IMG/VR virus record: IMGVR_UViG_2778261451_000006
Origin: a virus
Lineage: Duplodnaviria > Heunggongvirae > Uroviricota > Caudoviricetes
Strand: one strand, 5' to 3'
Length of the DNA: 36,228 nt
Shown: positions 5,061 to 7,536 of the stretch, one piece after another
Position numbering within the stretch: the first letter of the stretch is position 1
Layout: every line of letters begins with the position of its first letter
The notes under the pieces: model-generated
Seen by the model: the letters and a program-made list of their open reading frames with translations, nothing else
What the model was told of the DNA's origin: nothing
Databases searched by the model: none
Made by a program: the position numbers and the translations under genes

Positions 5061-5423
5061 TTAATGACCTGCTGCGCGTAGTTTTCCGTCAGGTTCACCG
5101 GCAAGAGTCAGTAATTGTCCCTGGTCTTCCTGCAGAATAGTCAGGCGACCACCGCGATTGACATACATCGGCGTTTCGGTGGTGTCTTCTTCAGAAATTT
5201 TCCCGCGGTTAGTCGGGCGAACATATGAGAGTTTGTGTTTGATTTTCACACGGTTCTCATCAAACGGTTCGATTTCCAGATTGAGTGAGACCTTCCCTTT
5301 GGTTTTCGTGTTCATCACACCGGAAGCGACTTCACTGAGAACTGCGCCGATTTTGGTTTCAAATACGCCGCCGTCCAGCTCCCCGATAAATGCCTGCACA
5401 TCAGTACTGCGTTCGCTAGCCAT
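5061..5423 (-). CDS. hypothetical early protein (YfdP-like), 120 aa
   Basis: Start moved to ATG at 5423 (MASERS...) with AGGAG 7 nt upstream; the 226-aa ORF-track version has a non-protein-like N-terminal extension. Confidence 0.6.
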   Translation of the reverse strand: MASERSTDVQAFIGELDGGVFETKIGAVLSEVASGVMNTKTKGKVSLNLEIEPFDENRVKIKHKLSYVRPTNRGKISEEDTTETPMYVNRGGRLTILQEDQGQLLTLAGEPDGKLRAAGH

Positions 5424-5891
5424 TTTGCTGCTCCTCATCATATCGACCCTGCAAGGTCGGTTGGTTTCTCCACAAAACAGAGAAGAACACCTGCGGTGGC
5501 AGCCGCCCGGATGGATTGGGTTATGAGCCCGTCGTCCGGTGATGCTCTTCTCTGTTTTGTAAAAAGGACGGTACCAGCCGTAAGCAAGGGTACAAACTGG
5601 TACCGCCAGGACTACACACAGCATAAAGTTGTGGTGCCGGGTGCCTCCCGGTGCCTGGCGAAGGTTGCACACCAGGCGGGTGGGTATCCACAGAAGGTCG
5701 ACTGTCAGCCTCAACCTTAACCCGCGTGCGCTGAGCCGCATTCACCACAACGCTAAGGATTCTCTCTGGTTGAAAATACTTAGCTGTTATGTGCCTGCTT
5801 TTAGCCACATCAGGCGAGGTGGACCTGGTTATTCCCCAACAACAAGGATTCGGTTAATCTGGTTATCCCCAACAACGCAAAAGGAAAAGAA

Positions 5892-6326
5892 ATGTCCGGT
5901 AATATCTATACGCTGTACAAATCCCACTGTGAAAATGTTGGAAAGTATCGGGGCATTGAAATCAGTGGGGTAGTGTCATCAGTCGAAATAAGCAAAGTTG
6001 AATCAAGGGCAACATTACTTACTCTTTTGGACCTTGTCTTACATGAGCACCGGAAGAAATTCGGCACTCCCTATAATCAGTTGAATGGGAAAAAGGCTCT
6101 GGTTCACCTTATTCTGATGAAGCATCACTGGATGCCAAAACAGATTAATGAGATGAAATTTGATGAACTTCTTCTTTCAATTCAGGATGAACTCACACTT
6201 GATAAAATAAGCGTAACCGCCCAGAAATTTTTAGATTATCGAGACTGGAGATCACAAATTCATCACTTTGATGATTTTGACGAAAATGAATGGGATCCTA
6301 ATTTGTCTGCACAATATCTAAAGTAA
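5892..6326 (+). CDS. hypothetical protein, AT-rich moron, opposite strand to the early-left operon
   Basis: 144-aa ORF with AAGGAAAAG upstream; visibly AT-rich against GC-rich flanks; two ~18-nt direct repeats immediately upstream; plus-strand terminator at 6564–6587. Confidence 0.5.
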   Translation: MSGNIYTLYKSHCENVGKYRGIEISGVVSSVEISKVESRATLLTLLDLVLHEHRKKFGTPYNQLNGKKALVHLILMKHHWMPKQINEMKFDELLLSIQDELTLDKISVTAQKFLDYRDWRSQIHHFDDFDENEWDPNLSAQYLK

Positions 6327-6504: not shown

Positions 6505-6563
6505 TTCACATCTCCTCAAGTTATCAGTTACTTGTTGATGGGGACCAGATTGTTAAAGAGCTA

Positions 6564-6587
6564 AGCGTCCTGTAGGGCGCTTTTTTG
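6564..6587 (+). terminator. putative rho-independent terminator
   Basis: Stem AGCGTCC/GGGCGCT (one G-U pair) with TGTA loop, then TTTTTTGTTG. Confidence 0.45.
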
Positions 6588-6751
6588 TTGCTAACGAATC
6601 ATCCTGGACTTCATATGCCCCAGGCGGCTACTTCGTGGGCGTCCTGCCTGTTCGTTTTTGACATTTACTGACTGCTTACGACACATGCACCGTGTTGCAA
6701 CCAGATTTTGTTGTAATCCTGTAGTTGGTCTGGAACAAAAGATAAAATTAA

Positions 6752-6790
6752 ATTGCGAGATATGCAAGTGATATTTGCGAGATATGCAAA
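6752..6790 (-). promoter_or_regulatory. putative left operator (two direct copies of TTGCGAGATATGCAA)
   Basis: Two 15-bp copies 22 bp apart, sharing the TTGCG-N-GCAA pattern with sites in the cI/cro intergenic region. Confidence 0.4.
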
Positions 6791-6843: not shown

Positions 6844-7536
6844 TTAATTATGTCTCTTAAGGGTTTGCGACTGACTGATTAAGACCTTTCCAAAGACCAT
6901 GAATCGGTGTTCGTTTTCGCTAGTAATTCCCCATTCACGGTAAATCTGGTTATCAGAAATCACCAGCAGTTTGTCAGGAATCATTTGAAGTCTTTTAACG
7001 TATATTTTGTCATCAAAACCAAAGACATATATACCATCACCATCAAACTGATTGATGCTGACATCAACGAAGATGAGATCTCCTGGCTCAATGGTTGGAC
7101 ACATACTGTCCCCACGAACGTTGATAACTTTGATGTGATTGGCTGGTCGTCCGCCGAACATTGATACAGCATTATCAGTTCTGTATTCGATGGCATGAAT
7201 CACATCAATGACATCACCGCCCTGGATAAGGCCATTTCCCGCACTGGCACTGATATCCAGCATTTCAATACGGAACACATCCTTCACCTGCGCAACATCC
7301 TCATTATTACTGTTTTTATATACAGTATTACTTTTGTGGGCAGAGGTAAAGAGATCAGCAATATCAACACCTAAGCTCTTGGCAATATTATTCAGTGTTT
7401 GTTCGGTAAATTGTTTTTGCTTACCCGTTTCTAAGCGCGAGATGTTCGCCGCATCTACTCCTATCGCTTCAGCGAGATCGGCGATTTTCATGTTCTTCGC
7501 TTGGCGAAGTTGTCTGACTCGGTTTCCTATGTTCAT
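6844..7536 (-). CDS. cI: prophage repressor, CI-like (HTH plus S24 LexA-type peptidase domain)
   Basis: 230-aa ORF; N-terminal HTH (VRQLRQAKNMKIADLAEAIGVDAANISRLETGK); C-terminal S24 signature (RGDSMCPTIEPGDLIFVD ... VKRL); divergent from a cro-like gene. Confidence 0.9.
   Translation of the reverse strand: MNIGNRVRQLRQAKNMKIADLAEAIGVDAANISRLETGKQKQFTEQTLNNIAKSLGVDIADLFTSAHKSNTVYKNSNNEDVAQVKDVFRIEMLDISASAGNGLIQGGDVIDVIHAIEYRTDNAVSMFGGRPANHIKVINVRGDSMCPTIEPGDLIFVDVSINQFDGDGIYVFGFDDKIYVKRLQMIPDKLLVISDNQIYREWGITSENEHRFMVFGKVLISQSQTLKRHN

Follow-up and report, generated by a model that had tools for sequence, protein, structure and literature searches.

A predicted small RNA with an STnc100-related core and an RprA-like seed in the early-left leader of a lambdoid prophage

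The window analysed here (36,228 nucleotides (nt); Caudoviricetes, IMG/VR virus record IMGVR_UViG_2778261451_000006) is a lambdoid prophage adjoining a tRNA gene (1369-1441), and our subject is its non-coding stretch at 5424-5891, between yfdP and a divergent gene for a 144-residue protein. The minus strand of this stretch carries a covariation-supported structured RNA core related to the small RNA (sRNA) families STnc100 and PasD, followed by a single strand identical to part of the host sRNA RprA and by an intrinsic terminator, which together make up a predicted sRNA of about 191 nt. The stretch is 98-99% identical to Shigella phage SfIV and the E. coli phages Kati and 569R4, and at least 80% of it is present at high identity in 1,626 of 5,426 complete E. 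coli genomes (about 30%). Beyond the 144-residue gene follow a 73-residue minus-strand open reading frame (ORF), a cI-like repressor and cro/cII-like genes; this gene order places the stretch in the early-left arm, on the strand of the early-left genes. In a retrieved relative (L001; further relatives are given by L numbers where coordinates are needed), yfdP is annotated at the equivalent place. The features at the locus are as follows:

5562-5752, minus strand: predicted small RNA of about 191 nt, consisting of core, single-stranded seed and terminator; ends placed by homology to sRNA-17, which was mapped by rapid amplification of cDNA ends (RACE)
5628-5751, minus strand: multi-helix core, a distant relative of STnc100 and PasD
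5743-5751, minus strand: 5′ strand of helix P1, GUUGUGGUG, pairing with CACCACAAC at 5628-5636 (9-nt perfect inverted repeat)
5740-5742, minus strand: invariant junction AAU, directly after the P1 5′ strand
5724-5739, minus strand: P2 hairpin GCGGC-UCAGC-GC-A-CGC, with a conserved UNNGC loop and a bulged A
5720-5723 with 5678-5681, minus strand: P3, GGGU paired with ACCC, enclosing a variable hairpin
5712-5718, minus strand: pseudoknot 5′ strand AAGGUUG, inside P3, pairing with the P4 loop at 5661-5667
5654-5676, minus strand: P4 hairpin CCUGGUG-UGCAACCUU-CGCCAGG, whose loop CAACCUU (5661-5667) is the pseudoknot 3′ strand
5637-5651, minus strand: P5 hairpin CCGGG-AGGCA-CCCGG, followed by CA and the P1 3′ strand (5628-5636)
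5610-5623, minus strand: seed UGCUGUGUGUAGUC, a single-stranded 14-mer identical to RprA nt 62-75
5561-5608, minus strand: intrinsic terminator with stem 5566-5608, core CGGUACCAG/CUGGUACCG and UUUUU at 5565-5561
5472-5560, minus strand: long hairpin of the yfdP 5′ leader, with a stem of about 21 bp and a branched tip bearing a near-invariant GACGGGCUCAUAACCCAAUCCA
5441-5587, minus strand: upstream ORF of 49 residues with a TTG start, covering the terminator 3′ arm and the long hairpin
5424-5471, minus strand: proximal yfdP leader, with a small hairpin at 5442-5461 and the Shine-Dalgarno sequence GAGGAG at 5436-5431
5061-5423, minus strand: yfdP, the left neighbour, with its ATG at 5423-5421
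5892-6326, plus strand: ECs1072-family gene of 144 residues, the divergent right neighbour
6844-7536, minus strand: cI-like repressor, beyond the 144-residue gene

The G+C content is 0.52-0.58 over 5300-5800 compared to 0.37-0.45 in the flanks. For 5426-5891, the predicted fold of the minus strand has an energy of -189 kcal/mol (z = -5.5, 0/100 shuffles as good), whereas the plus strand reaches z = -2.5 only, and the structure is therefore strand-specific and above chance. An initial annotation made from the letters alone had described 5441-5890 as GC-rich, highly structured and free of credible ORFs, and these properties are borne out; it named no strand, and the RNA is assigned here to the minus strand. 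All of the inverted repeats that it listed were recovered by inspection of the sequence and a repeat search. Its 14-bp arms are enclosed by longer ones at 5472-5496 and 5536-5560 (25 nt, 84% complementary), CGGTACCAG/CTGGTACCG lie at 5569-5577 and 5597-5605 (100% complementary), CCGGG/CCCGG at 5637-5641 and 5647-5651, and CCTGGCG/CACCAGG at 5654-5660 and 5670-5676. The borders required adjustment, since yfdP ends at 5423 and the non-coding stretch runs from 5424 to 5891. Its proposal of a structured RNA (leader, terminator element or sRNA) fits in all three roles, each of which applies to a part of the stretch.

The only evidence that the stretch is a frameshifted remnant of a known gene is a pseudogene call by the Prokaryotic Genome Annotation Pipeline (PGAP), which labels the equivalent of 5438-5748 (minus strand) in E. 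coli strain M7424 a 'hypothetical protein, frameshifted'. None of the ORFs in the stretch has a Pfam match, and codon periodicity is absent: relative to the homologues in ST64B, 118970_sal3, LLS, Kp4866-6 and phiES15 (73-79% identical to the window), substitutions are spread evenly over the three codon phases and insertions and deletions are mostly not multiples of three. Stops interrupt all six frames across the element in LLS, phiES15, Kp4866-6 and Lys8385Vzw. The 49-residue upstream ORF, whose stop lies directly before the yfdP Shine-Dalgarno sequence, recovered from 5.8 billion proteins only 18 small E. coli 'hypothetical protein' clusters (at least 77% identity, no domain), despite the occurrence of the stretch's DNA in about 2,800 complete E. 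coli genomes. Its frame is also open in ST64B, with a strong Shine-Dalgarno sequence and a GTG start; in Kp4866-6 the frame open over the long hairpin differs from that of the window. The ORF is probably not coding, and the PGAP call is an echo of sporadic ORF calls. A decayed frameshifted gene, or translation of the 49-residue ORF, is an extremely improbable explanation of the stretch. Its conservation is explained by the compensatory base-pair changes described below, in line with the preference for an RNA over a decayed gene in the initial annotation.

A permissive Rfam scan aligned 5781-5559 (minus strand) with the entire STnc100 model (RF02076, model positions 1-206 of 206) at 43.1 bits and an E value of 7.5e-8; the curated gathering cut-off is 47 bits, and STnc100 was not reported for the window in the gathering-threshold scan. 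The architecture of the family is found in the window, with the P1 junction, P2 after GGUGAAU, CCGGG-AGGCA-CCCGG followed by CACCA, and a 3′ terminator. Weak matches to DicF, the hairpin ribozyme, ftsZ-DE and mir-9412 (E 0.18-7.5) were taken as chance. Searching one genome per species with the pattern GGTGAAT-N65-95-CCGGGAGGCACCCGGCACCA yielded 94 stretches from Enterobacteriaceae and Erwiniaceae, and a covariance model built from an alignment of 100 unique cores scores the window at 75.9 bits. This home-built model, run with filters off, found no second core copy anywhere in the window, and gave weaker matches in the same genomic position in phage LLS, Klebsiella phage Kp4866-6 and Lys8385Vzw.

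Helices P1, P2 and P5 are together 98.8% paired across 92 aligned matches, with double-sided changes in 10 of their 16 pairs; 0/500 shuffles reach the observed values, and controls with slid partners fall far below the covariation of these helices. The P1 pairs are 98% paired with compensatory changes among the 92 homologues. P2 is CCCCC..GG-N-GGG in canonical family members and GCGGC..GC-A-CGC in the window, a fully compensated rewriting, and other compensatory variants are CCACC/GGAUGG, UCUCC/GGAGGA and CCUUUC/GAAAGG; three of the five P2 pairs are altered on both sides in 14-19 of the 92 sequences. We attribute the sub-threshold Rfam score to this rewriting of P2. P5 is identical to the STnc100 consensus and is invariant by construction in the pattern-selected sequence set, whereas LLS and Kp4866-6 have GGUGG-AGGCA-CCACC, a compensated stem with an unchanged loop, and double changes affect three of the five P5 pairs. 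Of the checks suggested by the initial annotation, a covariance scan, folding of both strands and a comparison with related prophages have been run, and the last shows paired positions kept via compensatory changes across genera; neither of the two refuting outcomes that it named was obtained.

The Rfam consensus structure of STnc100 has no pseudoknot. Among the 89 cores with an automatically detectable P4 hairpin, the segment adjacent to P2 shares at least four contiguous complementary bases with the P4 loop in all 89 and at least six in 72. The duplexes comprise more than 55 different sequences, and mean complementarity is 6.4 with a core's own loop and 4.7 with the loop of another sequence. 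Folded alone, 5562-5752 (minus strand) forms P1, P2, P4, P5, a free seed and the terminator. The core in the window is a covariation-supported structured RNA related to STnc100 and PasD.

A fold in which several helices meet, a pseudoknot covaries and the nucleotides of junction and loops are invariant would also suit a receptor for a ligand or protein, for example an aptamer of the riboswitch kind or a decoy that binds CsrA or some other RNA-binding protein, with the variable 3′ part as its expression platform. Instead of working through its seed, the RNA would then sense or titrate a factor. Tails that vary between terminators and gene starts, GGA motifs in P5 and in the P2 of canonical members, the published presence of PasD2 in the most abundant CsrA-bound chimera of enteropathogenic E. 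coli (EPEC), and tandem arrays of two to five copies in some genomes are in keeping with such a role. However, GGA is missing from P2 in the subfamily of the window, the genes downstream have no relation to one another, so that a common ligand logic is not apparent, and the sole alternative pairing between core and terminator that we noticed (no systematic search was made), CCUGGCG with the P4 3′ arm, overlaps the terminator stem by two bases. We consider a receptor function of this kind very unlikely.

The tandem arrays, with STnc100-type copies about 250 nt apart and mostly each with a terminator, occur in Superficieibacter (L028, L029, L038, L061, L086) and Leclercia (L084). The early-left alleles keep the P1 strands (CGUUGUGG..CCACAAC), the terminator and the yfdP-leader hairpin, and the body between the P1 strands takes the form of at least three mutually unalignable sequences, here termed the window type, the RS218/Lys8385Vzw type and the phiNP type (compared over L008 2189-2334, L109 2500-2690, L007 2120-2330 and window 5628-5751). 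The core body resembles a swappable cassette.

At its 3′ end the predicted RNA is closed by a terminator hairpin of -21.7 kcal/mol followed by CUUUUUAC, which aligns to the terminator of the STnc100 model. About 60% of stand-alone family members have a terminator within 20-60 nt past P1. Many of them adjoin lysis or moron genes, which fits the published late-region position of EcOnc27 of enterohaemorrhagic E. coli (EHEC) and PasD1/PasD2 of EPEC at a moron site downstream of Q and stx. The long hairpin holds a constant position between the terminator and yfdP, and six of its 35 predicted pairs show compensatory changes among eight sequences from phages of E. coli, Salmonella, Klebsiella and Citrobacter; its role may be that of an RNase III site or of an element controlling translation. 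Many Shiga toxin (Stx) and K1 prophages share the module 5426-5608 at 97% identity, and the BLAST matches end at 5608.

At this locus a different allele has been mapped experimentally. sRNA-17 of E. coli K1 strain RS218 is 193 nt long according to 5′ and 3′ RACE and northern blotting (Sun et al. 2020, PMC7719688), and its full-length primers give a 5′ end of CGUUGUGGUGAAU... / CGUUGUGGUGAAUGCGCAGG and a 3′ end of ...CUGGUACCGCUCUUUU (PMC7719688). The primers match the allele of phage Lys8385Vzw and of strain EC69, a cerebrospinal-fluid isolate, both of which we used as stand-ins for the RS218 allele; the ends map to window positions 5752 and approximately 5562. Deletion of sRNA-17 raised yfdP by 2^6.6 (about 100-fold) and also increased yfdR, while yfdP reads were approximately 0 in the wild-type K1 lysogen (PMC7719688). 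The authors, who detected no relative in Rfam, interpreted yfdP and yfdR as targets in trans (PMC7719688); the rise of yfdP has a simpler reading as the loss of the terminator. We group sRNA-17 with STnc100/EcOnc27 and PasD in one structural family, a link drawn here; both this membership and the pseudoknot appear to be unreported in the literature searched.

The forward primer used for quantitative reverse-transcription PCR (qRT-PCR) of sRNA-17 (PMC7719688) falls within the pL leader of EC69, some 250 nt ahead of the 5′ end found by RACE, and therefore points to a longer precursor. The pL of EC69 is TTGACA-18-TAATGT, just past the repressor's terminator. Both the published sRNA-17 'promoter' fragment and the qRT-PCR amplicon (PMC7719688 Table S2) fall within the transcribed pL leader (EC69, L109 2251-2640), and the published ArcA binding and expression changes may concern the whole early-left leader transcript rather than a dedicated sRNA promoter.

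The seed, unpaired in the predicted fold of the 191-nt RNA, connects the element to the host sRNA RprA. The longest substring shared with K-12 RprA is 14 nt in the window, 16 in Kp4866-6, 19 in phiES15 and 26 in LLS, where the identity runs into the terminator stem, and phages that infect E. coli, Klebsiella, Cronobacter and Citrobacter retain the RprA-like seed. In RprA, the anti-site to csgD site I comprises nt 60-97, a fragment limited to RprA60-105 is enough to repress csgD, and the same region pairs with ydaM (Mika et al., PMC3465796). The 5′ untranslated region of csgD carries UACUACACACAGCAGUG at -99..-83, complementary to the window seed at the RprA site that Mika et al. validated, with a perfect 13-bp complement at -98..-86. 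The predicted duplex reaches -23.7 kcal/mol, which 1/200 shuffles matched, and the sRNA-17 seed gave nothing comparable against csgD. Activation of rpoS by the seed was considered and rejected: its duplex with the rpoS leader does not outperform shuffled sequences, and the rpoS-pairing part of RprA is absent. The Rfam RprA model (RF00034) has no match in 5200-6100 at E values up to 10; among related phage RNAs, phiES15 scores 41 bits and vB_EcoM-689R2 50.2 bits (cut-off 70).

Phage vB_EcoM-689R2 (689R2) encodes a short RprA-like RNA (L108 1435-1548, minus strand; E 6.5e-4) in the same early-left position, without an STnc100-type core. It consists of a conserved block, also present upstream of the window RNA, 24 nt identical to RprA nt 59-82, and a terminator, and it is block, seed and terminator jointly that match the RprA model.

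Stand-alone family members are transcribed from a characteristic position, in that 24 have TTGACx-17/18-TAnAtT with the -10 hexamer ending exactly 8 nt before GGUGAAU, and P1 starts at +1. A consensus scan and a positional hexamer search found no such promoter in the window subfamily and no good sigma-70 hexamers in the region upstream of the window RNA. Because a close-set sigma-70 promoter is absent, transcription starting further upstream is most likely. The upstream features are:

6739-6767, minus strand: candidate pL, TTGCAT (6767-6762)-17-TATCTT (6744-6739), just past the repressor terminator at 6824-6807
6789-6775 and 6767-6753, minus strand: operator-like TTGCATATCTCGCAA in two identical copies
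5825-5843 and 5859-5876: direct repeats CTGGTTAT(T)CCCCAACAAC with a 34-bp period, between the RNA and the divergent 144-residue gene
5790-5822, minus strand: conserved 33-nt block ACCACCUCGCCUGAUGUGGCUAAAAGCAGGCAC, upstream of the RNA
5752-5784, minus strand: small hairpin GCUAAG..CUUAGC with 13-nt arms (85% complementary), within the Rfam match and upstream of the proposed 5′ end

TTGCAT-17-TATCTT at 6767-6739 is probably the pL of the window, and the first part of its leader (6715-6690) shares homology with the corresponding leader in EC69. The RNA lies about 985 nt (about 1 kb) downstream of pL, with the 73-residue ORF and the antisense of the 144-residue gene in between. Inside the presumed leader, GCUCUUUAACAA at 6561-6550 (minus strand) matches 12 of the 13 bases of an rrn-type boxA and is preceded by a hairpin, AAGCGCCCUACAGGACGCUU at 6582-6563, which the terminator scan listed as a plus-strand terminator. 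As a candidate, 6550-6582 (minus strand) may be a Nus-factor antitermination site for the early-left operon. Closer to the core, a boxA-like site is found in several early-left alleles (L109 2488-2500; L002 2818-2830; L004, L050-L053), with the variants UGCUCUCAUCG and UGCUCUCUUCG in others and a degenerate form in the window at 5762-5753.

Such a leader could act purely in cis. The core, perhaps together with the boxA-like site, would modify RNA polymerase or recruit Nus factors like HK022 put or nut/rrn, so that transcripts run past the terminator into yfdPQR once the prophage has been induced; the small RNA would arise as a by-product. The core is part of the pL leader in many lambdoid phages, and in Lys8385Vzw it would start about 8 nt past the start point of a textbook pL. 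A terminator between core and next gene is missing in some relatives, the core is better conserved than the tail, boxA-like UGCUCUUAUCG stands directly 5′ of P1 in EC69, ST64B, sal3 and Buttiauxella, and the perfect rrn-type boxA further upstream in the window's pL leader (6561-6550) would also fit. However, most family members are separate genes, each equipped with a promoter and a terminator, the boxA-like site is degenerate in the window (AUCCUUAGCG), no second copy was found in the window's pR operon, and HK022 putL, a two-stem RNA of about 70 nt, shares no motif with the element. Moreover, the terminator works in the K1 lysogen, where wild-type yfdP reads are about 0. An exclusively cis-acting leader is, in our judgement, distinctly unlikely.

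Other RNA-like elements accompany some alleles. A fragment resembling the 3′ half of a tRNA (..GCATTGACGAGCAAGG..GGTTCGATTCCAGAC..) lies about 60-110 nt upstream of P1 in L004, L005, L007, L050, L051 and L053; ARAGORN found no tRNA or tmRNA for the GGTTCGATTCCAG fragment upstream of some alleles. isrK-like RNAs score above the Rfam threshold in ST64B (L002 5232-5308) and the EC69 prophage (L109 152-228), with 64 and 61 bits, and the EC69 flank contains a C4 antisense RNA of 81 bits (L109 40-127) on the early-right side of the immunity region.

The 33-nt block upstream of the RNA lies at +15 of pL in LLS and is also found in phiES15, Lelliottia and 689R2; a longer primary transcript of about 260 nt may include it in its 5′ part. 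In 689R2, repeats of 34-bp period but of another sequence (CTGTAGGGGT) occupy the equivalent place, and the divergent moron gene, where present, has its start codon 45-70 nt from the block (compared over window 5790-5876, L108 1480-1600, L009 2395-2430 and L006 2215-2250). From its repeats, 5825-5876 is a candidate protein-binding DNA or promoter region, and the one part to which the protein-binding alternative of the initial annotation may still apply. Extending this, 5785-5891 alone could be a divergent promoter-operator region for the 144-residue gene and the RNA, formed by the repeats together with the conserved block and bound by a phage or host regulator such as ArcA. The two 18/19-bp direct repeats of 34-bp period and their shared geometry in 689R2 despite a different repeat sequence favour this; a fragment upstream of sRNA-17 is bound by phosphorylated ArcA (PMC7719688), and the window repeats contain GTTA motifs. 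The published fragment is a different sequence, however, the K1 pL leader; LLS, where the divergent gene is absent, carries the block within its pL transcript, and good sigma-70 hexamers were not found near the RNA by the above scans. ArcA sites are spaced by 11 bp, whereas the GTTA motifs are spaced by 9, 25 and 34 bp. We regard a DNA control region of this type as unlikely.

We propose instead that the stretch holds an sRNA embedded in the early-left leader, which acts in cis as a terminator before yfdPQR and in trans as an RprA mimic on csgD and ydaM, and to this reading we assign a probability of roughly 0.6. The minus strand of 5424-5891 would be an untranslated part of the early-left transcription unit containing a small-RNA gene. 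The RNA, extending from about 5752 to 5562, would comprise a 5′ domain of the STnc100/PasD/sRNA-17 class, then the RprA-identical single strand, then the terminator. It would derive from transcripts initiated upstream, either at pL or at a local promoter of low strength, with termination and 5′ processing setting it free. Acting in cis, the terminator would stop transcription before yfdP-yfdQ-yfdR, leaving the early-left genes silent unless read-through occurs, and the long hairpin downstream would belong to the yfdP leader. In trans, an Hfq-type base-pairing sRNA would mimic RprA at csgD site Ib and probably target ydaM as well, lowering the expression of regulators of curli and biofilm. A discrete 193-nt RNA with these ends, and the de-repression of yfdP and yfdR, have been shown by others in the homologous allele and by analogy may apply to the window.

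Several observations weigh against this proposal. The STnc100 score of 43.1 lies below the curated cut-off of 47, and no convincing promoter was seen near the RNA, the best local candidate, TTAACC-18-AATAAC (5857-5828), which was picked out by eye, matching 4/6 per hexamer. Family conservation sits in the structured core and not in the seed, which is unusual for base-pairing sRNAs and hints at a function of the core's own. With just five U's following UCC, the U-tract is short compared with strong Hfq-binding 3′ ends, which suggests that termination is leaky. The core copies of Buttiauxella, Lelliottia and a Pseudescherichia relative lead to a gene start within 30-65 nt, with no terminator in between, and resemble 5′ leaders. 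The resistance cassette inserted in the sRNA-17 deletion could itself cause the rise of yfdP, and for the window allele we infer expression, Hfq dependence and csgD regulation.

More tentatively, and as a possibility to which we give less than even odds, these elements could form one large modular family of prophage sRNAs, in which a pseudoknotted 5′ domain with its own function is joined to interchangeable 3′ seed-terminator cassettes. The conserved 5′ domain would serve stability, or the binding of a host factor such as CsrA, Hfq or RNA polymerase. The cassette of the window, a widespread E. coli/Shigella prophage allele, would have been taken from, or have converged on, host rprA; the mimic, made from the early-left transcript, would repress csgD and ydaM and thereby curli and biofilm formation, with the terminator gating the early-left genes. 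If true, a prophage copies the targeting module of a host sRNA to control biofilm regulators. The element is present in about 30% of complete E. coli genomes, yet is unannotated or called a pseudogene, and the family connects three separately described prophage sRNAs (sRNA-17, STnc100/EcOnc27 and PasD) through a testable common core. The cis terminator reading also bears on the interpretation of infection phenotypes of the sRNA-17 deletion mutant (PMC7719688).

Among known systems, HK022 put, lambda nut and rrn boxA resemble the element in being structured RNA early in a lambdoid pL transcript, with a boxA-like site before some alleles. According to a cryo-EM paper, HK022 putL folds about 70 nt into two stems and a triplex. 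Homology to put was rejected, as no motif or architecture is shared with the HK022 pL region, and a putR-like second copy was not found in the window with the home-built model (filters off). The put RNAs bind the beta′ zinc-binding domain of RNA polymerase, and copies occur in both the pL and pR operons of HK022, in contrast to the single copy in the window. The terminator adjoining the core is effective in the K1 lysogen.

RprA (RF00034), a host sRNA under Rcs/Cpx control, shares with the window RNA 14 nt (RprA nt 62-75) that are single-stranded just 5′ of the terminator and belong to the csgD site Ib and ydaM pairing region. The two RNAs differ in their terminators, and the Rfam RprA model has no match to the window. 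The 5′ hairpins and the rpoS-pairing region of RprA (nt 28-60) are absent from the window RNA; therefore, activation of rpoS is not expected.

sRNA-17 occupies the same locus: it is encoded on the minus strand of a lambdoid prophage, with the repressor/pL leader on one side and yfdP on the other. Both RNAs are about 190 nt long, with the 5′ P1 strand CGUUGUGGUGAAUGCG, a terminator hairpin and a U-tract, and in both the long yfdP-leader hairpin comes next; in the window the CGUUGUGGUG 5′ end and the CUGGUACCG-U-tract terminator lie between pL leader and yfdP. Identity does not extend over the whole 193 nt, with only the P1 strand and terminator in common. The body of about 130 nt is not alignable by BLAST, the home-built model gives the sRNA-17 allele 23.9 bits, P5 is CCGGAGAUCAGCACCGG in sRNA-17 and CCGGG-AGGCA-CCCGG in the window, and the seed AGCCACUGCUUUGG contrasts with the RprA-like UGCUGUGUGUAGUC. 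The K1 RNA lies about 270 nt from pL with no genes between, whereas in the window the 73-residue ORF and the opposite-strand 144-residue gene intervene.

STnc100, EcOnc27 and PasD align with the window over the full model, through P1, P2, P5, the AAU junction, CACCGGGAGGCACCCGGCACCA, a 3′ single strand and a terminator. All are prophage-borne; known members are about 200-247 nt long and Hfq-dependent, and PasD and EcOnc27 are Hfq-dependent sRNAs on northern blots. The window differs in its score below the STnc100 cut-off, its rewritten P2 (GCGGC/GCACGC), the lack of an own promoter such as that of the 24 stand-alone sequences, its early-left leader context in place of the late region, and its seed. 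The kind of element is thus already known from STnc100/PasD and, at this very locus, from sRNA-17; what sets the window apart is the combination of a compensated P2, the absence of an own promoter, an early-left context and an RprA-like seed.

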